From assembly GCA_036172245.1 (NCBI GenBank), contig JAYWIR010000142.1:1-64000 (forward strand): a DNA stretch of 64,000 nt, in the 5' to 3' direction. Below the pieces are notes generated by a model. It ran no database searches. It saw only the letters and a list, made by a program, of their open reading frames with translations, and had not been told where the DNA came from. Of the stretch, positions 37,638-52,185 are shown piece by piece (within the stretch, counting starts at the first letter, position 1; each line of letters starts with the position of its first letter). A program made the translations under genes and the position numbers. The stretch is from Raillietiella orientalis. Its lineage: Eukaryota.

Positions 37638-38620
37638 TGTCACCCGGGTCCGTCGGGGCGTTTATTACAAACCATCCGGGAGCAGAGTTCCCGGACAAAG
37701 GGGAAAAACAATATACGGAGGTGGTGGGATCCCCGACACGCAGGTCGGTATGCCGAAAGTCCGGAACGGGAGAGAGAAGACCACAAATAGACTACCATAA
37801 AAAAAATAAAAATAAAAATATGGAGGGCAGGGGACAGGGGTCTTTGGTGAGTCTGTTCCTTCCTTTCAAAACCTGCGATGGATGCCGGCGATCTCTCTCC
37901 TTACGTCCTGTGGCAGATGGGCCCACTCGTCAGTCGACGGCATGCTCGCGCTGGCTAATCCGGTGGGCTTACGAAGGATGGCCAGCTTCTCCAACTCTCG
38001 GTGGGCCTTGTCGATGGCGCGGGTGCAACACACGGTTGCAACGACAGCACCCAAAGACAGGCCGCCTGGCGTGAAGAAGCGGCGCATCAAGTCCCCCGCG
38101 GTGTCCCCCTGTTGCAGGAGAGCTGAGGCCAGCCTCCGCGAAAGTCCTAGGAGGGCACCGCAGTCCAGGAAAAGGTGCGGGAGCGTTTCCACTTCCTCGC
38201 ACCGCTTACAGTTTGGGGAGACAACTCCTCCGGAAACACGATTCGTCCGCTGGTTGGAGTAAACACCTCAATGCACCAGCATGATGACGTCCTGCTTCCA
38301 TGAAAGGGGGAACACAGAAGTGTTCAAACAGGAGGGAGGGACCACGAGTTCTTCGGGGGCACACTCAAGTGTTCACTCCACCGGAGTCCCTTCGTGATGT
38401 GGCGATGCGTGACTGCGTCTGCTAGCTCGCAAGTCCTCCAGCAGTTAATAGGTCGTGTTGTTCCTGCGATGGTGCAGGCGACCTCTTATCTCGCCGGTTC
38501 GCAGCTTTTACCTCTTGCCCTGAGGGATGACAGCGCGTCGGCGAGGGGCGTGACGGCCAGGCGAGTCCACTTCTCCTGGCTATTGCACACCTCGTCCACC
38601 GTGCAGTACAGGGAGAGGTG
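37638..38620 (-). mobile_element. 3' end of a related LINE with a different 3' UTR, abutting the APE of the previous element
   Basis: CKRCEEVETLPHLFLDC zinc finger; T-rich UTR; terminus AATAAACGCCCCGACGGACCCGGGTGACA. Confidence 0.85.
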
Positions 38621-38629
38621 AGCGCGACA

Positions 38630-39385
38630 GAGTTCCAGGAGGGAAACATCCTGGTGCTTTGCCGCACCCCTGGAACACCCCATGGTGCGTTCCGGCTCGC
38701 CTCCTCGCCAGTCGTGTGTGTTCCGGTGCGAAGGACTCGCGTCTTTTCTTCTGTGACCAGGCCCGAAGATCCGAAGATGCGGCCTACTGCTCGGGCGCAT
38801 GGCAACCCTGGCGAAGAAGCACAGCTGGATGATTTGCTGCTTCGCTAACTCCTCTACCTGGATTTAGGAGACTGCTGGCACCTGTGCAAAGCTGAACCTG
38901 CGAAGTGAAGAATTTTTTAAGCGCCTGCGATTCAGCAATAACGCCCGCCGTACTCTGCGGGAAATACTGGAGTTTCTGAGGTGGCCGCGCCAAGCGCGGA
39001 AGCCATGGCCGAAATGGCCACCTACAAGGCAGCAGGGTATAAACCCTCGCAAATATACCAGGTAGGCAACCTTTTCGATAAGCGAAAAGGTTCTGTGGCC
39101 CCAACTGGGAAGCATGCAGAAGGACCTCCAGGGCTTTCTTCGAGGGATGGAACTTCCTCCCAGTGAACCGTGTTTCCTTCCCTGCCCTCCTACTTGTTTT
39201 TGTTTTTTTTATTTTTTCATTTTTCTTTTTTTTTTTCCTTCCATTCCCTTTCACTGCTGAGGAGAGCCACGCCTTTCTGCGTGCCGTTGTCCCGGCAGGT
39301 CCAGTGCCTATGGCCGTGGTGAGGCCTCGTACCACGGGTTGTAGAGTGTTTTTAAATAAACGCCTGGGGCGTACCCGGGTGATAA
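38630..39385 (+). mobile_element. Mosaic of family A pieces (post-RT region, short ORF1 piece at about 38982-39090, 3' UTR and terminus)
   Basis: GRKIRRCGLLLGRMATL-type sequence; APSAEAMAEMATYKAAGYKPS; T tract; terminus at 39355-39384. Confidence 0.85.
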
Positions 39386-39669
39386 CCCGAGACCTCGCAG
39401 TGAGTTTTGCTAAGCACGAGAGATTGTGCTGAAGGTCAAAAAGCCTCCTACTGTCAGCGTTGCGACCCAAAAGCCTCGCATTAAGGCCTCAGGAGGTGGC
39501 GAATGCGTTCGCTCGCCCGATACGGGAAAATTGCTCCCGCGGGCAAAGAACTCAGCACCGTCTGAACCTACCGCGGCCAATGTGCCCCAGGCGCCGACTG
39601 CAGCGATCAAACAGCCTGCAAACCCTCAACCCTCGCGCGCGGACATCTCCGCCAAAACTTGGTGTGGTT

Positions 39670-40790
39670 GGACGTGTTTTTTGGTGGCTCCGCCAGCGAG
39701 TGTCTGAAAAGCAACCTAAGCTTGTTCACTTTAGTGTAGTGTTTAGTGTGGATCGTCGGTGTCCAATGGAAGCCTTGCCAGAGGACATCGCGATGGAGGT
39801 AGGCATGTGGGAGGCGTGTCCTCCCCCACAACCTGCAGAATCAGGGGCAACTGCCTCGGGATCCTCTTCGCTGCCCGCGAGGAGCTGGAGCGTCGTGGTG
39901 TCCGCGCCAAGCGTGGAGGCCATGGCAGAGATGGCCGCATATAGGGCCTCCGGATACAAGCCATCGCTTGTATATAAGGTAGGCCCTTTATTCGACGGCC
40001 GGACGGCCCGCGCGTTTGCAAAGGCTCTAAAGGCCGCAAATGTGAAAGAAGAAGATCTTGACGGCCTCTTCATCCTCAGCGGATGTCAGGGCGTCGAGGT
40101 AGTCTGTAAAGACTTCACCTTGGCCCAGCGCTTAATTTATAACCCGCTGAACGCAGATGGCCGCAAGATCTTGCCGGTTACAATGGATCGCTCCGTGGTG
40201 GTCCATCTTACCGGCATCACTAACCGCATGACGCGCTCTGCTTTTAGTGAACAGTTGAATAAATATGGAGACGTGTATGCGCTGTGGGAGAAGCTCACGA
40301 TATTCGAGGGGTACAGCAGCCTCTTCGGAAGTCAAGCCGCCGCGCGTGTTACAGTGAAAGAGTATTGTGGGCTTCCCCACAAACTCGAGGTAGCCAACGA
40401 GGACGTCGACCACTGGTACGTGGGAAATCCACGTTATTGCAGGCACTGCAATATAGTAGGTCACCTCCTTAAGTGGTGCCCGAATATTGAGTGCTACTTG
40501 TGCGGGGAAAAGGGAGACGTTCGTCGCGTGTGTCCGAAACGCGCCACCTCGGTACCGCCTGCAGCCAAAAAGGCGCACGCAAAAAGGAAGAATAAGGTCG
40601 AAAAACCTTAAAGAGAAAGTGGCCAGCAGCAGCCGCCAATCCCCCTTTCCCCAACAAAAGTGTCTAATTAAACAGTTTCCGAAGACGTGGGAAACGAGGA
40701 GGGCTGGAAGTTGGTAAAGGCCAAAAAGCCATAACCGGCTGCGAAAGCCGAGAAAAAAACGGAGAAAGTGGCGACCGGCGCGATTCAAAA
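39670..40790 (+). mobile_element. Family A 5' UTR and ORF1, 3'-truncated
   Basis: GGACGTGTTTTT at 39670; MEALPEDIAMEVG; CRHCNIVGHLLKWC and CYLCGEKGDVRRVC. Confidence 0.92.
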
Positions 40791-40814
40791 AAAAAGCCGC
40801 GTCCCGAAACCCTC

Positions 40815-41480
40815 CGCACAGAAGCCCTGCGGGCCAAACCAGATCAAGGCCGCATCATGCACTGCGTGGCCCTCTAGCCGGTCTCTATATGTTTTCTCGA
40901 GAATCCATCCCTACTCCACTTCTGTGACTGGCGCTTCTAACACCGTGCCCGCCTGAAGCAGCTTTTCCTCAACGGGAATCGCAAGCGGCCGGGCTTCCCT
41001 GGAGCATGCCGTCGCTGCCCTCAATTGAAGGAAACACTTGCCCACGTGCTGTGTCAAGGTGCACAGGGCACCTAGTTACGAGAATTCCGGGAAGGCATAA
41101 CGCTGTGCGGCCAAAGTTCCTCGAATTGGCCATTGACCCCTCGATTGACAGTTCCCTCCGACCGGACATTGTGGTGACTGACGAGCATCGCATGCTCATC
41201 ATCGACGTGACCATCCTGTTCGAAAACAGGAAGGCGTCGATGGACGAGGCCCCGCCCGGAAGGATCGCCAGATACCGGCTGGTCCGGAGAGAATACGAGG
41301 CACAGGGTCGACAGGTCAAGGTGGACGCAGGATTCCTTGTCGGATCACTGGGTAGCTGGCACCCGAACAACGATGCGGTCCTGAGTTTCGTAGGCCTGAG
41401 CACACATTAAATAAAGGTGATTCGCCCTAGAATCATGTGCTCAGTGACCCGGGGGCAAGGGACATCTAGTTTGACCATAC
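40815..41480 (+). mobile_element. C-terminal fragment of a NeSL/Utopia-like non-LTR element (CCHC plus restriction-like endonuclease)
   Basis: LRAKPDQGR, FCDWRF*HRARL, CRRCPQLKETLAHVL, RHNAV, LRPDIVV...IIDVTILFENR, VGSLGSWHPNND and RDI*FDH are characteristic RLE-clade motifs. Confidence 0.9.
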
Positions 41481-41482
41481 CA

Positions 41483-41630
41483 ACAGTTGAAGGCAGAGGA
41501 AATCATGACGATTGGGCGCAGAATATTAGACGGCTGCGGTGCAAGCATGGGCAAAATCCATAACAAAGAACAGCATAGGAAAAACGGTAACATGGACAGA
41601 GGTCAAGTGATTGCCGAAAATACGAAGGAT
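41483..41630 (+). repeat. Second copy of the 5' end of the 43.2-45.7 kb ORF
   Basis: 41483-41516 is identical over 34 nt to 43274-43307. Similarity continues (EQHRKNGNMDRGQVIAE vs ERHSKNGNTGRGKVVAE) after an in-frame 39-nt indel. Confidence 0.9.
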
Positions 41631-43190
41631 GAGTCGACCGTCGGCGGACACCGAACCGACGGCCGAGATCCCCCTTACCACGGCAGCGTGTCCCTCCTGG
41701 TGTGGAGCGGCGTTTCAAAACTTGGTAGGCTTGTGTACAGACTGTGGTTCAAACATCGTACCGCTCGTCTGTGGTTGAATTTCCCCCTCGGGGCACTCTT
41801 TGTCCTACCCAAACGTGGCCAGAAATCAGTGTCCGCCGCCGCGAGCGCTCGTATCGTGGCGTCGCTGGGCGTTTTCAAGTCTCAAGGTCGCTTCTCGGCA
41901 ATATTTCCCCTCATTAAGTGCTTATCGCCTTGCAATTGCAAGGAATTTATACACTTTGTACCAAAATCTGTTATTCGAATCGAAAACAACAAATTCTTTT
42001 AAGCGTTTGTGTGGTGCAATTTCAGCAAGGTAAGGACTTGAAATTTAAATTTTGTTTTCTCCGTAAACGATTCGCCTGATAATCTGACGTTGAGTTTTCA
42101 AATTATCGGCCTTAGGAACTTGAAATCTTATCTCAACTTGCTTCCTAGTGATTTTGAATTCAAAATTTTGAAATGAAATTACGTTCGTGATCGCGTTACC
42201 GCGCAACGCGAAGTCCGATGCAAGAATAAGAAATTTTTATTTGCAATGTATTTGATAGAAAATTCAAGTCTAAATACTTCTTTAAATTGTGGAACATCTG
42301 TTAAGATAAATATCTGTGAAAGAAAATATTAATTCCATGAAACTATTATTTTGTGAAATGTAAATAAAGAAAATTAGTAGCGACATCTGCAGTACATAAT
42401 AAACACTAAAGAGTCATTACTATTAGTTGTTCGAACATTGGATTACGATAAGTTTTCAATTAATAACTTTGAATGCTGTGTTTATCTAAGCTACAAAAAG
42501 TAGCTTGATATAGTTTTCCACGCTTCCAATTAGATAAAATAGAGAAAAATCCAAAAAAAAAACCCTGCTGCTCTCTATTCGTCAATTCGATCACTAGAAT
42601 TTGTCGACCGTGCGAGTTTGTACGCCGAATGAGGTCATCATGCTGTGCGTTTGGTATTTCGGTTTATGCGTTCTTTACCTCACATTTTTGATTTTCGGCT
42701 TATCCAACTTTGCTCCCCACGCCTAATGCCAATGTTTCCTTTCTGAGAATTCTTTGGTTTATATTCGTTCCGTTGAGTTCGCAATTTTCAGTGGAGCCAT
42801 CTCTGGTCTCATCTTGGAACTAGGGTCGAATTTCCAATTCAATGTTTTCTTCTCCGATTTCTATCGGTAAGATTTATTCCACCTTTCGTTTGACATCAGT
42901 ATTCTTTTCGAATCCCGTCTCATCGTTTTGGCGGTGATTTTTCTGAAAATGACGCATTTCTTGTAAATTCTAGGTTCGCCATCTACACGAATTATCGTAA
43001 ACTAGTTTTGGATCGTCATTGAACTGTCTTTTCATTTTTCATCTTGAATCTTATTTTACAATTTTTGTTTGCATGATTTCCTGATGTATTCTTCGATTCC
43101 TTAGGCCTTCTCCTAGCTTCGGACATCCATAAATTTTATTTTATAAATTCCCGACAAGTTGACGGACGCATTCCAAGCCTGCGAAAGTTT

Positions 43191-45728
43191 TTGCAGCATC
43201 TTCCTCTCTTCAATTGCTCTAGCCCTTCCAAAGGCGAAGTCTGCAGTCCGTTCAAGGAGTTGCATCCGACAGGACAGTTGAAGGCAGAGGAAATCATGAC
43301 GATTGGGAGCAAAATATTAGAACGGCATAGTAAAAACGGTAACACTGGCAGAGGTAAAGTGGTTGCCGAAGAGAGGAGTAAATGCTTTGTCCATGGAGAG
43401 TTAACCTCGTATTGGCCAAACGACAACCAGGCTACATACCGTCGGGGATGTCTGGAAGCAGAAACATATTCTGTTGTAACGGAATACAGTCAGTGCCTCA
43501 GATTTGTTCACAACAGCCGTACTGTACATCAAAGGATAGATAGCATTGCCAATCCGCGCAAGAGTGACACACTCCGCGTAAACCGCGAGGACTTCCATGT
43601 GGCGGTAACGGAGCAACGGATACTGAAAGTCAATAAGGCAAGGGTGTCGCAGAAGAAAGTGCCCGTTAGCAGGGACGACCTGACAAACGCTCTCATCAAC
43701 GAAAATTATTGTGCAGCAGTCGAGGAGCGTGACCAGTTGGTCAACTATCATCGCACCTTTATCGAGACGATAACAACCTCAAAAGTTTGGAACAAATATC
43801 CATCACGAAACAACCACTGTCTGCAGAAACCTTCATGGGTAGCCGTCAGTCAAAATGAGGAAATAGAACACGGTGTCATACAACTAAAGTCCACCGCAAG
43901 ACCAGTACAAAGTGCCACGTTGTTAGGTGACATGCAGATTAACGATTCTCGGTGGTGTAATTCGAGGCTGGATAATGTGTGGTCGCCAATCTTTGATACG
44001 CCCATGGCAGCGTACGGAAAATCTGACAGGAGAAGTCTGCGGCTGAAACCCAGCTTGTATGACATCCAGGATGATAATACGTGGACCGAACCATCGGGAT
44101 CGGACTATATGTTCTCACCCAAGACGGAAAGAAGAACTGTCAAGACCAAGAGGATGAAACGTTCACCCTTCCGAGTAGTAGCAATAGCTCTTGCGCTGTG
44201 CATCATCTTCCATCTGCTATACCGACTTTATGATAATTACGGCATCTTCAACATGGTACAGAAGGGATGTCGTACAGCAGAGGACACAGAAGGCACACCC
44301 ACCGAGAGCGACGTGCTCCACCGTCGCACGGCATCGTTAGTAGACATATACAGTCCCGTGACCGATATAGTACTGCTCAGAACTGACCATACAGCGGAGG
44401 CAATTCATATCGCCAATATAGAAATACCTATACCAGGAAATGCATCTGATTTGAATGAAATACCGTCCGTTCAAGTGCTGGACGGAGGACCAATAATCGA
44501 CGCTTGTGCAACGGAGGTGATGCACTATGATGGCAAACTCACAAAGATTCTCGATGGACATTCGAGACCGACGATGGAGATAGAATTGAACTGGGGAGAG
44601 ATGGAACAGCTGGCGGGCATCTCGACAGTCCGTTTTACGCCTAGGGAGGAGATGGGTGTAGATAATAACAAAAATTACCTATACGCTACGGAACATGACG
44701 GAGAGGGCAAGAACATAGTGGAACTAAGGCGAGATCCCGACAAGCAGCTGAAGACCAGGCTCTATGACAACAACGGCCATGACGACTCTGTAAATATACT
44801 GGACCAGACCTTTACGAACCGAACAAAGGCCAGGAGTTATCCATGCCTAGTCATAGGTTCGTGGAATTCCGTCTCAGAACTGTTGATCATGTTCTGTATG
44901 GGGGACTACACGGTATTTAACAAAGAACCAAAGGAGACGGTTCGCAAATTTTTGGATGCATCAACACTAGACAAGATCTACAGAGAGAGAGTTAAACGTG
45001 CAGCGGTGGAGGAATGGAGAGAAAGCAGCGGCTTCGCTGACGACATAATGATGCAGCAAATCAACACCAATTATGCTTTTGACTGGGAGCTAATACTTTC
45101 CTCCCCGGGGAACGGAAGTATATCTTTGGAGCATCTTGCGAGGTATATGGTAGTCGGTGAGACGGTACACTGGCAATGGGATATTTGGTATCACCATGTG
45201 CAACAGCCTACATTGACGGGTATCAGGCTAGGCATCACACACAGTTGGGATGATATTACATCAGGAAACCTGTTGCCACTGATAGAGACGGAAGTGGGAC
45301 GATTTGTACATAAGTGGAATTATCTGTGCGTCAACAAACTGAAAATGCAAGACGAGAGGGGCTACGATGAGCTTCTCATGAAAATAGACACATATACAAG
45401 TAGGCATAATGTCACCATGCTAAACACACAGGATGGGACGGAAGACAAATCGTGGCCGACCGTGCTTGAAATGCAAGGGCGCAGCAAGCTGATGAAGGCC
45501 ACTGGGTACGAAGGTGGGCACTCCGAGGTCAGCGGAATTTGTCAATCATGGGTATGCGGTGTCAGAACATATGGAAGAGACTGTCACACAATGGCGTTGA
45601 CGACCGCTGTGCTTACTGCTAACTTGTCGGAGGACATCAAACATAAGGTCTGCAACGAGTACTATAGCTGGAGAGTCAATACAGCCATCAATGTAAACGC
45701 CGGTGTCTGGAGCCCATTGGGTTTTTAG
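43191..45728 (+). CDS. Intact intronless ORF of unknown family (845 codons from TTG; first ATG at 43296); candidate endogenous viral element
   Basis: Longest ORF in the window, with globular composition, an A-rich sense strand and no TE motifs recognised. Ends G GGT TTT TAG. Homologous fragments lie on both sides. The ORF is well supported; the product is not identified. Confidence 0.8.
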   Translation: MQHLPLFNCSSPSKGEVCSPFKELHPTGQLKAEEIMTIGSKILERHSKNGNTGRGKVVAEERSKCFVHGELTSYWPNDNQATYRRGCLEAETYSVVTEYSQCLRFVHNSRTVHQRIDSIANPRKSDTLRVNREDFHVAVTEQRILKVNKARVSQKKVPVSRDDLTNALINENYCAAVEERDQLVNYHRTFIETITTSKVWNKYPSRNNHCLQKPSWVAVSQNEEIEHGVIQLKSTARPVQSATLLGDMQINDSRWCNSRLDNVWSPIFDTPMAAYGKSDRRSLRLKPSLYDIQDDNTWTEPSGSDYMFSPKTERRTVKTKRMKRSPFRVVAIALALCIIFHLLYRLYDNYGIFNMVQKGCRTAEDTEGTPTESDVLHRRTASLVDIYSPVTDIVLLRTDHTAEAIHIANIEIPIPGNASDLNEIPSVQVLDGGPIIDACATEVMHYDGKLTKILDGHSRPTMEIELNWGEMEQLAGISTVRFTPREEMGVDNNKNYLYATEHDGEGKNIVELRRDPDKQLKTRLYDNNGHDDSVNILDQTFTNRTKARSYPCLVIGSWNSVSELLIMFCMGDYTVFNKEPKETVRKFLDASTLDKIYRERVKRAAVEEWRESSGFADDIMMQQINTNYAFDWELILSSPGNGSISLEHLARYMVVGETVHWQWDIWYHHVQQPTLTGIRLGITHSWDDITSGNLLPLIETEVGRFVHKWNYLCVNKLKMQDERGYDELLMKIDTYTSRHNVTMLNTQDGTEDKSWPTVLEMQGRSKLMKATGYEGGHSEVSGICQSWVCGVRTYGRDCHTMALTTAVLTANLSEDIKHKVCNEYYSWRVNTAINVNAGVWSPLGF
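45719..45728 (+). promoter_or_regulatory. Candidate -1 ribosomal frameshift heptamer G_GGT_TTT immediately before the stop codon
   Basis: X_XXY_YYZ pattern in the correct phase; the -1 frame stays open to TAA at 45944-45946. No stimulatory structure identified by eye. Confidence 0.5.
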
Positions 45729-45969
45729 CTACGACTCAAGAAAGCAGCGCGACTCATACATTAGACAACACGAAATTAAAGACGAATCATGGCGACCGCC
45801 CCTGTATAGAAAACGTGTCGGAGACTGGCAGCGGACGGACACCTGGGCTGAAACAACCAGAAGTGGTCCAGGAGAAAATCGGCTCGACTCCACAAGATGC
45901 CGATCGCAGCGCCGACCACAGAGAGACACAGGGAGTGACGCTGTAAATGACCAGGCAATAAACCCGACT

Positions 45970-46710
45970 GACGCGTTACCTCCCGGAACCTTCGGGCTAA
46001 AAAGAAAGGGGATACTGTTCGTGGCGAGTCGCTGTGGCTGTTGGTGCACCTGCGATACACCCTAGCTGAATGTATAGAGAGTTTCAGAATGTTGTGCGGT
46101 CATCAGACAGAACATCTAGATCTCTCCCTCCGCACAAGTGGACTCGTTGATTATTACAACGAGGTCACCAGGATCATCCTCGCAATCCCCTCGGCGAATC
46201 GGCGCTCTATCGAGTTAGCGAGAATCGCATTGGATGTTCCAACAACCATAGCATTGGACAACTGGATTCCGGCGACCAGCCTCGATCCCGAAGAGCAGCA
46301 TTAAGTTGCCCCTTGAATTTAAAGGGGGTCCTTGACCGCTTCCTTGCCTCAAGGGTGCCGGATGGCCTCAACTGGGCGGAGGTCAACATGCTGTTGACCT
46401 CACTGTTGACCTCACGTTTCCCCTTCCAGGTTGCGGCATACAAGAACAGACTCCTCGAGGTTTAGTGACATTGTATCAGGGAGCTCCGAAGGCAATTCTA
46501 GAGAACATGTACCTGACAGACTTCGGGGATGACTTTAAAGCGAGGTTGTACGGGCAAAATGGGACGGTCACCTGTTTCGATCAAGTCCCCATCTCGGAGG
46601 GCGACTCCCGGAGAGCTCCCATAATGAATTTGGGTCGTGGGTGCTGATAATTTATGCTGAAATCCTTGAAAGCAAATTTGTGATAAACCTGTGGTTTCAC
46701 TGGAATGGGG
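45970..46710 (+). pseudogene. Diverged, frameshifted homologue of the central part of the 845-codon ORF
   Basis: Collinear blocks: VHLRYTL/FHLLYRL, RTSGLVDYYNEVTRIIL/RTASLVDIYSPVTDIVL (10 of 17 identical), LNWAEV/LNWGEM, KARLYGQNG/KTRLYDNNG and GSW/GSW. Confidence 0.8.
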
Positions 46711-47078
46711 AGAGCCACCGCGGTGGCCTCAGAGATGGGTGGCTACACTGTGCAAACTCCGACTCTCAAGGTCCCTTCCCCCCCACCCATCGGCAACGTC
46801 ACGCAGCCAGCAGCGCTTGCGTCGCCCTGTCAGCTGCCAGATGGAAGCACAGGGAAGCCATCGAGCGGGAATCGGAGATCCGGGTGTCCATCCAGATTTT
46901 CTCTTCTCCAGGAGAGTTTCCTGCAGGAGGAGGGAGGGGGAGTTCGGCATTTGCACACGGCTCGGAAGGAGAAAATCCTCGGCGGAGGGCTAACCTCAGG
47001 AAGGGGCGATCAGGAAAGAGACTGACTAGGACTCCCTTCGTGGGAGGAGGCATCATCATCCTCTCTGTCTGCTAGAAG

Positions 47079-47243
47079 AGTTTCATCAAGCACAAGAGCC
47101 TTGATATTGTGAGTAATCAAAGTTTTACGTGCAATATGGTCTATAATACTACCAGGATTACCTATTACAATTCGCGGCTTTTTTCTTAAATGATTTAGCT
47201 GCTTGAAGATAGGCTCGCCACCAATTAGTAAGGCAATCTTCAA
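47079..47243 (-). pseudogene. Bacterial-type DEAD-box RNA helicase fragment (GG motif to motif II), Rickettsiales-like
   Basis: LKIALLIGGEPIFKQLNHLRKKPRIVIGNPGSIIDHIARKTLITHNIKALVLDET; sharply AT-rich against GC-rich flanks; TPGR decayed to NPGS. Confidence 0.8.
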
Positions 47244-50200
47244 CGGTGTGCTGGTCAGGGAGTAGGTGGGTGGGTATCCGGGAAGGTGTGGGCCGCTGGA
47301 CAAACATCGCTTCTTCGGGATGAGGGATGGCTCAGGGCAAATCCTGCAAGATCTACAAATCACAGTCCTGGCAGATGACTATGCGGGGTGGAGAGCCGAT
47401 TCCCAGAGGAAACGCGGGGGCGATCCACGGCACCCACCGCCTTCACTGAAGGGGGTCCCAGCGAGAGAGGGCATGGAAACCGTCCCGCTGCCGAGAGAGA
47501 CGGCTTGCCCGCGTTTTCAGCTGAGACGCCCCCCGCCTTTCCCCGGCAATCGTGGGTGAGAGAGCATGCCTTTTTTTTTTTTTTCTTTCAGTCCAGAATT
47601 GTCCGGAAAACCGAAAAAGAGAAGCAAAGTGAGAAGAGAGGAGGGAAAGAGGAAAAGGGCAGCTCGAAAGACGGGGAGCGGCGACTGCAGGCCGTCGAAA
47701 AGTCTTGATCCCACTGCCCTCATCACGCGTTCCTAACTTTCGTGAGCGCCTCTTTTCGTTATTGCGAGGGAAACCGGCCGAGGAAGGAGGCGAAACTCTC
47801 TGGATTAACCACCCGCATGCGGAAGAGGAAGAGAAGGGAGAGAAAGCTGCCAGCAACCTGGAATGAAAAAATTAGGAGCTCTGTTTCCCGGGCGATGCGT
47901 GCGGATCGCAGGAAGGAGGGCAGGTTCCGAGGCGGCGGCACCTTCGGCCGCCTTTGTCGGTCGGTATCGTGGGCAGCTGGCTCGCGGCTGGGCGCCTTCG
48001 CAATCAACCTGTGCAGGCAGTCACGCACACACCTAGTGTGTGAGGACAAGCATCGCTTAGAGGGAGAAGGGGGGGGAATTCCAGAGATTTCGAGCAGGAG
48101 CGAGCGGAAAGGAAGAAAGCCGACGCGCGACTCAGGAGGGACGGATGACAGTTGTCCTCGCTGCTTTCCCTGGTGAGAAGAGGGGACAGGAGGTAGAGGA
48201 GCAGAACCCGAGTTGCCGCTGCCATCTCCAGAATGGAATGCCCCGTATCAAACACCGCCTCGAGTCCCAGGACAAGGTAGCCCCTTTTTATCAAATCAAG
48301 AAGGGGGAAAAGAAAGGGCAAATCCAAGGGGAAGCAGACGATGGTTCCTCCCTCCCCTTCCGTGGTCGTATTCTCTCTCAAGAAAGGTTACGTCCGGCGT
48401 GCGATAGATCCCTGTCTCGGAACGACGATGACGACGACCCACGGCGCTAGAGAGAAGCAGCAGCAAAAAAAAAGAAACGCCCTGTTGCTGCGCGACGACT
48501 GATCGTGGTGGCGGCAAGAAGATTTGCTCTCGAATGCCCAAGATGATCGTAGAGTAGGTCCAGCAAATGAGTGATTTTGCCCTCACGGATACTGCCCGAA
48601 ATCCGAAGCTCTATTTACGTCCAAAATGACACAAATTTTCAGCATGGCGCCTATTTGCATGGATGTGTTGGTGATTCTTGAAACACCGTGTGCGCTCTTT
48701 ATAAGCAGTGGTATCCCTCCTTGTAGGAAGCGTAGTGAGAGGAACATTCTAATGAAAAAATAAGCATGCGCGCAATCTCATTTATCTATTCCTATACAAT
48801 GTCTTACGTGTACAGATAAACACATGTGCCCACAATTTGTGCATGTGAGTTCACTAAAGTCATCCGCTTCGTTGGCTGCAGTTTTCACAGGTGATCCGTC
48901 CAAAAGAATGTCATGGTAACAAATATCCCAAGAGTACCTTGTTAGCCACTCACAGAGAGTAATCCTATCTGTCACAGTACATTGGCTTGGCTACATCCAG
49001 ATGTGGCGGACACAAAACCGAAGAATTCCGATGAAATTCTACGCTTTCCATAGGCATCATTTTGAAATTCCGTGCGGGAAGCTCTTGGTGAAAGAAAAAA
49101 TGGTTCCTCCGGCAATCTGCTTGAAGTTCCCTGAACTTCCAGCAGCATTAACTCGAGCGCTTTCATTCCTGTTGTTCAGAAGAGGGAAGCAGCGGAGAGG
49201 AGTCGGCGAGCTTCACGCTTCGCGAGTGTCCACCAGCGTAGGTTCCACCCACTTCACCATGTGCTTGTCGAACCTGAGGTCTGTAGGTCAAGTGCAACAG
49301 AAAGGCGGAAGAAAGGGCTCTCGTCAGAGTTCAGACAAGCCTCTGATCTGTGGCATGAGCAAAAGATGCAGTCCTCGGAATGCTGGTCATCACAAATTCC
49401 AGAGGATGGTTTGAAGGCTGGTCAGCAAGTGTCATTGCGTGCAAAAAGAGTACCGAGCTCCTGAAAACTTGAAGTTTTGAGGGTACTGGAAACTCCGAAG
49501 CGATCCTTTTATTCATTCCAAGCAGCTGAAGACAACTGAGGCTCGCAATGTTGCGAGCAACAGACCTACAACCCATGATTGATTAATTAAACACTGCAGT
49601 TATCAAACTGTTGCACCATAGTTGCACGAATCCAGGCAAAGTCGCAATCTTTACGAAGCACCAGTTCACTCCAAGTGGAATCAGGACGCGTTGTCCTGGA
49701 TTGGAGATTAATCCTCCCGCTCGCGTTTCCAAAACAGAGTGGGAATCAAGGAATATTGCTGAAGCCCTTTTTCAATGCCTCGCGCGCTTCTTTCACTCGT
49801 TGGGTCTCCCATTGCGAAGATGATTTGTTCCGAGCTCTCTCCTATTGTGGATTCCACACGTTATGATCAGCCACCATTTTCGTCCGCTTCTGCTGCGCGT
49901 AAGATACGAGGAACATCCGTTTTCATGCTGGAAAAGGAAGCATCCTCGCCAAACTCGAACTGAGCAGTTCCGCCGATTTCCTGGAAAATTCCTGGTTTTT
50001 GAATTCTGCGTGTCCGCTGCACCTCCGGAATGGATCATCTTCGGATTGCTGTTATCCAAACAGACGCGGAATCATTCAATGTGCGAACTGAAATTTTCGA
50101 GATAACGTACCGTGTGCTCGACGACCTGTACAGATAGTCATTTCCCCTTTGAATAAAGGATGTGCGTTCTCGTCCAGTCTTCTATCAAAATGATTGATTA

Positions 50201-51979
50201 AACAATTCTGAATGTCTCATTAACATGAGCTCAAAACTATGAAATGGTAAGTGTGGGACATTGGTTGTCTGCTGGCTCCAAGTTACCATTTCTAAGATGT
50301 GAAAGTAAAAGCAAAATGAGACCACTTATTGTTTTCATTAATAATTTCTTCTTTTCTAAGGAATGGCGCTCTCATTTTCTTATAAATAGGGAAAGCCGCA
50401 TCGAGAACTGCTTAAAGTTGAAGGATGATCTCCTAGGTCTCCGAAGAAATGAGACTACTGTGAAGTGCTTTTACGAAACAAATTCGTGATAGCTGCAAGT
50501 AGAGACTGCAAGAGTGGAAAATCAAAGGGCTCCGCAGTAGAACCATAAGGTGGTATTTTATTGACATCACTGAAGGAATCATTGGAGGGACAGCGACCAA
50601 GGCGATGGTACTTGGTTATTGGTTCCACGATGTTTCCAGGTTCGAAGTAACTCAAGTTTTCAGAGGTGCTGCGCCTCCGTATGTGTGGTTTGGTCGCATT
50701 TAAAGAAAAGATAACACCTTGATCGGTTGAGGGGGAAGCGAGGAGGATCGAGAATTTACTTAGCAGGAACAGTCGTTTCAACTTTCAAAGAGACGCAAAA
50801 GATATCTGGAAACGTCTTGGAAGAAATCAGCTATTGTGATTTGCAAATTATCAGCAACAGCAGATGATAAACACTTGAATCCAGACAGACAGAATGTAGC
50901 ATTGGAGAAGATGCATTTGAAATCTGGGATGTGTTACATGATGAATGAATACGAAGATCCATTGTCCCAAAAGGCACTGGCAGGAAGTTTTCAAGTCAGT
51001 GATGACGCAAACTTAAATCTTGAGAAATCACGAAGACGAAGAGACTTCTTTCCCTCCCTATTTCTTGCCTGTTTCCTTCTGGGACGCTCCACCGTAAGCG
51101 CGCATCCTCTTGAAATGGGATGACGGTTTTTTCGATCGCTCTTCTCGTTTGGTACTCCTCAGTGAAAGTCGGCACGGTGTCCCTCAGTCCAAAGGTCAAA
51201 GTGCCAGAATCACAAGACCACTCACGGGGCGGATTCCCGTCGGTGCGACTCGCTACCCGGAAGGCCCCGAGGGATCGGCGTTCCCTGTCCCGGGACGTTG
51301 TCTACCCGGCGGCGGTGATGCTACCCCAGGACGAGGGACGGGGCGGGGAAGGGCTGTTTTGCGTTCCCCTGGACAAACTTCCCGGAAGGAAAACACTTGG
51401 CAGCGTCCTGGAGGACACCGGGAGGGAGTCGCTTCCACGGACGCGCCAAGGATGAGCTCACCCAGTCGGCATGCAGCAGGAGCCCTCGGGCACTTCTTGC
51501 CTCTAGTGCACCAGGCCGCACCCTAGGCCCTGAATCCGGGAAGAGGTAGCTGCGAACGATCGCCTGATGATGAGGTCTTGCAGACCGTCCATCCCAGAAA
51601 GGGCCCCACCGGAACAACCTCGAAGGGAGTGGTTGCCGACCACACATCCGGATCGAATCCCGCGCGCATTTGCCCGGACCTGGGTCAGATGGAAGTCAGG
51701 GGTCAAGGGTCAGGTGCTGCAGCTCGGCATGATCGCTTTTTTCCTTTGCGGCCCGGGGAGTCGAAGGGAGCAAGCCTTCACCTGCCCTCCTGTATCATTG
51801 ACAACAAGACTCTCTCGTTCCCGATTCCTGGTAACCAGCTGCCCCCTCGTGTGACGCGAGAAACGTGGTCAGAGCGACCGCACGCGTTTCTTTTTTTTTT
51901 GTGTTTTTTTCACCAACGTCATCAGGTCTGCCGTGAGGACTGCCATGCCCGCAGGCGGTTGGGTAGGATTTTCCGCTCC

Positions 51980-52185
51980 TTCCGGGATGCGCTTCCACAG
52001 GATGCTCCTGTGTCCTACGACGTTCCTCTGCCCCTTCTCCAGTGTGAAGAACAAGCGCTCCTTGTATGACCTCGACGCGGAGAATCTCGGTACGGAGCAG
52101 TTGTGCCCACGCATGTGTGGCGTGCCCTCGCATCGCGGCTGCTTTACTGAAGGTCTTCCCGCGTAACACCTCATTCGGAAACGCA
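51980..52185 (-). mobile_element. Possible degenerate C2H2 zinc-finger N-terminus of an RLE-type retroelement
   Basis: Across frameshifts reads RCYA-GKTFSKAAAMRGHATH and LFFTLEKGQRNVVGH, resembling tandem C2H2 fingers. Confidence 0.3.

Follow-up and report, generated by a model that had tools for sequence, protein, structure and literature searches.

What is the broken coding sequence that lies directly downstream of a large open reading frame (the big ORF) in this DNA, and how did the two come to lie end to end on one strand? The window, i.e., the whole 64,000-nt stretch that was analysed, belongs to contig C142 in a eukaryotic assembly of 210 Mb and is dense with non-LTR retrotransposon debris in both orientations. 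An earlier note had described the downstream sequence as a second, deeply diverged member of the same unknown family. Our analyses showed that this second copy (Table 1) is a dead endogenous viral element: about 630 nt from the mid-part of a capsid gene, the source being a leboti-like dsRNA virus (Ghabrivirales, toti-like). It is almost certainly the capsid relic of a second virus. Its arrival beside the big ORF can be reconstructed with less assurance and is considered below together with the evidence that bears on it.

Table 1. Features of the locus, with positions counted from the first letter of the window.
Feature	Position	Strand	Remarks
3′ end of a multi-copy non-LTR retroelement	40836..41746	+	Interrupted by the capsid scrap
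Lineage-A capsid scrap, ~140 nt	41481..41623	+	Inside the retroelement end, 1.5 kb upstream of the big ORF
Lineage-A capsid relic (big ORF)	43147..45728	+	Stop-to-stop frame 43077-45728, 883 codons
Low-complexity tail of lineage-A ORF1	45729..45946	+	Frame differs from that of the big ORF; natural stop 45944-45946
Spacer between A and B	45947..46007	+	61 nt or less
Lineage-B capsid piece (second copy)	46008..46640	+	Decayed mid-gene part, matching residues ~366-596 of the big frame
Tandem duplication of 12 bp within the lineage-B relic	46391..46415	+	Mark of decay
Right flank, host repeat common to contig C21	46700..47079		74-75% DNA identity, not viral

The similarity between the two copies exists at the protein level only, as had been claimed, and blastn found no DNA-level match between them. 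In the frameshift-aware alignment with shuffled controls that the earlier note had proposed, the big ORF scored 102 against positions 45729-47100. The same alignment gave 38.6 ± 5.3 (maximum 58) for 60 codon-shuffled copies, a maximum of 52 among 82 real stretches of the window and 33 for the reverse strand. Sixty of the 201 residues aligned between the big ORF and the second copy were identical. The three motif pairs on which the proposal had been built do occur at 46131/44325, 46367/44586 and 46537/44751, in order and each in a different frame, while the GSW said to follow the third motif is read in a frame other than that motif's. Homology was detectable from 46008 (45969 by the profile envelope) to about 46640. 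The extent of 45970..46710 proposed before thus covers true homology and over-calls its 3′ end by about 70 nt, the host repeat being present from 46700. The second copy also aligned with a relic on contig C12 (P0064), with 99 of 200 residues identical and a score of 441 (maximum of 100 shuffles, 49), and free-virus proteins scored directly on the second copy reached up to 163.

The best path through the second copy changes frame near 46300, 46451 and 46476, with a fourth change near 46628, and contains no stop. Of the stops and frameshifts that had been attributed to this copy, only the latter therefore hold, as the stops are confined to off frames. With these three to four frame changes and the 12-bp duplication, the second copy displays the decay after insertion that is characteristic of toti-like endogenous viral elements (ToEVEs). 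Its longest frames (103-112 codons) are interrupted by the frame changes, so that it does not possess the intact reading frame of a co-opted ToEVE. The second copy codes for no protein, and its only plausible activity, a predicted and possible one, is that of a small RNA template. The signature of a uni-strand small-RNA cluster was looked for in the window and no sign of it was seen, the LINE pieces pointing both ways.

The earlier note was right to place the big ORF in a real protein family, but the family is a known one, i.e., that of toti-like virus capsids. Searching 1.84 billion representatives with phmmer yielded 58 hits to the big ORF, many of them 1300-1700 residues long. The named matches include Solenopsis midden virus, Nilaparvata lugens toti-like virus 1 and Zeugodacus toti-like viruses; two named matches are classed in Lebotivirus. 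Most of the unnamed matches sit on contigs of about 7 kb. An AlphaFold model of the big frame was obtained from 48 sequences (pLDDT 70, pTM 0.76). At E ≤ 1e-3, all nine PDB chains that matched this model were Giardiavirus or Omono River virus-type capsids, and its matches in BFVD included the LbTV coat protein (E 3.5e-34) and the Solenopsis midden virus capsid (E 1.3e-38). When the family profile was compared with PDB sequences, the Omono River virus polyprotein was the one match at E ≤ 1e-3 (E 6e-8), at the motif that precedes the mature capsid; 12 further rows with E values of 0.13-4.5 were taken as noise. Homology to a toti-like virus capsid, which defines ToEVEs, was found for both pieces, and it extends to the capsids of lebotiviruses as candidate source viruses. 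Both the big ORF and the second copy are endogenized remnants of ORF1, the capsid gene, of toti-like dsRNA viruses close to Lebotiviridae. We call the pieces leboti-like because no RdRp is attached to them and both fall outside the branch of the two classified lebotiviruses.

No Pfam family reached a meaningful score with the big ORF, with any of 25 relatives or with the four frames taken from the second copy, and ESM Atlas gave no usable match. Related-locus scans returned no virus contig, and no credible Rfam match was present over 38000-52000. Word-based protein searches also found no match, a result of little weight. We noticed that a protein of the bee Ceratina calcarata, listed as uncharacterized (1289 aa, partial; P0007/P0068), belongs to the toti-like capsid family; it is probably an unrecognised EVE or virus contig.

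Phylogenetic analyses separated the two copies. The main tree used 47 of 68 rows and 221 columns, with a bootstrap not fully settled; 21 rows, among them those of the C5 and C86 relics, were dropped because they covered fewer than 110 residues of the region. In this tree, the second copy grouped with the relics on contigs C12, C40, C48 and C93 (98/93; lineage B) and the big ORF with those on C6 and C13 (100/100; lineage A). Both groups were recovered in a mixture-model tree of 31 rows, from which 16 more long or short rows had been left out. Identity of the second copy to the big ORF is about 25%, compared to 48-50% for relics on other contigs (48-49% for those on C12 and C40). A clade consisting solely of the second copy and the big ORF was rejected (AU p = 1e-4), and so was the joining of the second copy to all of lineage A (p = 0.018). 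Given the rejected sisterhood, the second copy derives from a second virus, and these sequence comparisons support the view of the earlier note that the two copies stem from two different viruses. The same two tests rule out a local duplication from the big ORF.

The divergence between copies was further proposed to have arisen under coding constraint, and this is borne out for the divergence of the second copy from its lineage-B relatives. Between the second copy and the C12 relic, mismatches by codon position amount to 73/63/125 of 200, and the fourfold sites agree at 15 of 47. Such a skew over codon positions, together with so few identical fourfold sites, indicates that the copies diverged as coding viral genes and not as decaying duplicates. 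At the DNA level, the closest relative lies on contig C18 (104/133 nt).

A single clade uniting lineages A and B was not rejected (p = 0.48), and the two lineages may share a host-specific virus ancestor. The branch of LhTLV1 and Solenopsis midden virus (98/96; 96 in the mixture model) excludes both lineages, with the fork itself not resolved by the 221 columns. Neither lineage contains a free virus, the closest sampled ones being 25-31% identical. The absence of free viruses and the tolerated A + B clade would also suit an ancient captured capsid gene that was duplicated and diverged under host selection, the second copy being a dead tandem paralogue. Such a host gene family is very unlikely, however, since the copies are intron-free fragments with differing ends, and a LINE-type frame lies within about 1.1 kb in 5 of 12 of them, several flanks being short. 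Moreover, fourfold sites within the lineages are saturated (15/47 and 18/108) and yet the copies are broken, and the first copy retains a viral tail and stop while the second begins mid-gene.

Searches with four proteins located toti-like capsid pieces with differing ends at about 15 genomic places, which is a minimum. This count omits four P0066 matches (C23, C44, C74 and C26:1.10 Mb), which cover only the non-viral first 35 residues. On C18 (4200-5850 of L052), two lineage-B pieces lie 1 kb apart and are alike at 142 of 231 nt; the second of them is split by an inversion, which we take to be the pattern left by twin-primed retrotransposition. The best-kept lineage-B relics, those on C40 and C12, represent one insertion within a 9-kb duplication of 98.5% identity. 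A near full-length lineage-A ORF1 relic of about 4.3 kb lies between LINE fragments on C6 (L013:498-4992) and has 2 stops and 2 frame changes in its aligned part. The sole genome match to Pfam RdRP_4 is on C26:905008-905232, and none was found at the A/B locus. One such match against about 15 capsid places points to a strong capsid bias, in a search that scores few candidates.

The lineage-A relic of the window is itself damaged near its ends: its frame changes near 43229, a gap of 39 nt follows at 43319 and a premature stop occupies 45726-45728. The C-terminal motif of its tail is common to the ORF1 ends of free viruses, and an ORF1-tail profile ranked the frame of 45729..45946 as the best of 5735 frames (E 3e-4). 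It should be noted that this value is somewhat flattered, since the profile was made from 10 tails hand-picked among 24 free-virus ends after the motif had been noticed. From 43229 to 45725 the capsid core is unbroken, and the breaks are crowded at both ends (largest-gap p = 0.005, post hoc). For the 809 codons that follow the first ATG of the big ORF, 5.7 stops are expected at 5.8% neutral change, and the probability of having none is 0.003 at 5.8% change and 0.14 at 2%. The unbroken core does carry the 39-nt gap in a conserved motif. We regard 43229-45725 as a candidate domesticated toti-like capsid. The sequence directly upstream of the big ORF (42000-43146) is single-copy, with 36% GC and a CpG o/e of 1.38, and is a possible promoter or leader, splice-site-like motifs being visible by eye.

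The lineage-B piece begins mid-capsid and on the same strand, at most 61 nt past the natural ORF1 stop of lineage A, with no recognisable host DNA between the two pieces. Like composite nrEVEs, the locus therefore consists of non-consecutive viral pieces that are adjacent, the end of one ORF1 being followed by the mid-capsid of the other lineage. The spacer showed no significant match to either neighbour and could be sequence of the first virus beyond its ORF1 stop or eroded lineage-B sequence. Its comparison with the DNA upstream of the C12 relic was not significant (550 of 1000 shuffles as high), and the open frame across it had no other match in the genome. Under uniform insertion, the expectation for a lineage-B piece within 100 bp of a lineage-A place is 5e-5 (10 × 5 places), and the adjacency of A and B thus needs a cause.

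One such cause would be a chimeric cDNA made from two co-infecting viruses and inserted once. In a germ-line cell, a reverse transcriptase from a retrotransposon would have copied about 630 nt of virus B, jumped to the RNA of virus A just beyond its ORF1 stop and copied 2.8 kb of it. This would account for the common strand, the narrow gap free of host DNA and an adjacency so improbable by chance. In the roughly 370 nt of A outside its core there are 2 frame changes and one stop, making breaks about as dense there as in B (post hoc), and composite nrEVEs joined before integration have been proposed for single viruses in the available part of PMC8048955. We consider a single insertion of this kind possible but doubtful. 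No target-site duplication surrounds the second copy or the A + B pair (best match 7 nt), and homology at the junction was not significant, as 98 of 1000 shuffles and 22 of 640 real stretches scored as high. The uneven decay of the two pieces (p = 0.01-0.04) would in addition require selection on the core of A, and the upstream scrap shows that separate insertions happen at this locus. The more elaborate scenario appears improbable to us; in it, a single reverse-transcription event jumped between two diverged dsRNA viruses, the host kept the virus-A capsid core (~830 unbroken codons, where the decay that separates A from the upstream scrap would predict 5.7 stops), and the virus-B piece is decaying in the 3′ end of that gene as a possible source of small RNA against the second lineage. 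The locus would then be a chimera of two viruses that includes a domesticated toti-like capsid.

The order of the pieces on one strand, with the ORF1 stop followed by a second capsid, would also be produced by a single virus with tandem capsid paralogues that was captured in full or with part of its interior deleted. That origin is exceedingly unlikely, given that the second copy begins mid-capsid with no space for its front, that the two lineages occur together at none of the other capsid-bearing places examined in this genome, and that related genomes, as far as described in the available part of bioRxiv 10.64898/2026.08.27.747284, are about 7 kb long with a capsid followed by an RdRp. The A/B join is taken from the assembly, and a repeat-rich region such as this one could harbour an artefact that links two unlinked relics. 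Both pieces are, however, single-copy at the DNA level and so give little cause for mis-joining, and we hold an artefact to be highly improbable.

The flanks bear on how the pieces arrived. Retroelement and host repeats flank the locus on both sides in the assembly, i.e., it is embedded in host DNA as ToEVEs are. The interrupted retroelement upstream is, to judge from its translated motifs, presumably of the RLE type. Compared with the start of the big ORF, the scrap inside it is identical at 92 of 104 nt, and its 12 differences are spread 4/5/3 over the codon positions, which indicates decay after insertion. In six of the eight retroelement copies tested (nine were fetched), the element runs on across the scrap site, i.e., these are empty sites, and the ends of the scrap show a possible 4-nt duplication or microhomology. 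Several copies of the retroelement that ends at 41136-41487 are clustered on a few small contigs (C72, C33, C81 and C83), which suggests site preference or arrays.

As dsRNA viruses have no integrase, their RNA must be copied by a reverse transcriptase of the host. At this locus, viral RNA would have been reverse-transcribed by the enzyme of a host retrotransposon, most plausibly a non-LTR one given the abundance of non-LTR elements in the window, and the cDNA would have been patched into the chromosome. The locus may have captured viral cDNA more than once, with B coming to abut the 3′ end of A either via insertion at that spot or via later loss of intervening DNA. Repeated uptake is favoured by the third piece, i.e., the scrap, by the clustering of two unlike pieces on C18 and by the more broken state of the second copy. 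Three of five frame changes lie in the 610 lineage-B nt of 3410 nt (p = 0.043), or four of six when the fourth change is counted (p = 0.011), and this higher number per kb than in the lineage-A relic fits an older insertion. Against successive capture, the gap is much narrower than would be expected of a hotspot operating on a kilobase scale and is better fitted by one joined cDNA. The difference in break density would also vanish if the core of the big ORF were under selection, and both the missing target-site duplication and the dependence of the join on the assembly count here as well. Taken as a whole, successive capture, i.e., a second-virus relic together with repeated uptake of viral cDNA at this locus, is in our judgement the probable history, by a modest measure.

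In the available part of PMC10636211, 5686 ToEVEs are reported from 593 of 1188 arthropod genomes, most of them frameshifted and one shown to be co-opted. Like the pieces described here, the ToEVEs of planthoppers and other arthropods are capsid-derived, frameshifted and present several times per genome, and adjacent ToEVEs are reported (PMC10636211). The coat protein of NlToLV1, the source of most planthopper ToEVEs (PMC10636211), is among the family matches of the big ORF (P0024). As far as that source describes them, those ToEVEs differ from the present locus, where the source viruses are 25-31% identical to any sampled virus and two lineages lie within 61 nt. The co-opted NlToEVE14 has an intact frame (PMC10636211), in contrast to the lineage-B copy.

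The members of Lebotiviridae have a dsRNA genome of 6.7-8.1 kb in which the capsid ORF slightly overlaps the RdRp ORF, according to the available part of 10.64898/2026.08.27.747284, and the family is also treated in a preprint seen in part (10.1101/2024.08.27.609913). Lineages A and B resemble lebotiviruses in the sequence of the capsid core, in the fold and in the style of the ORF1 tail. They differ in lying outside the branch of the named lebotiviruses, and they are known here without an RdRp, so that their family rank is not fixed. The capsid TotiEVEs of the black soldier fly are 29-39% similar to LbTV or LhTLV1 and result from several independent integrations per genome (PMC9231314); unlike here, no abutment of two viruses is described in the available part of that report. 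In Aedes aegypti, non-consecutive viral pieces lie side by side, and some loci gather the EVEs of several viruses (PMC8048955; bioRxiv 10.1101/127498, both in their available parts). Each Aedes composite derives from a single virus and is associated with LTR elements within uni-strand clusters, whereas two viruses, non-LTR surroundings and mixed orientation are found here. In the literature partially covered, we found no report of two abutting toti-like capsid relics; the supplementary tables of PMC10636211 may list these loci.

Toti-like viral fossils are well known, and what sets this locus apart is only the near-seamless join of two viruses. With these relics, the host's fossil record gains two leboti-like virus lineages that had not been sampled, and what had been an unknown family receives a name. 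Lying beside the unbroken big ORF, the dead relic provides an internal control for testing capsid domestication. If a single insertion proved true, the locus would provide direct evidence that reverse transcriptases of the host can splice the RNAs of different viruses into one cDNA.
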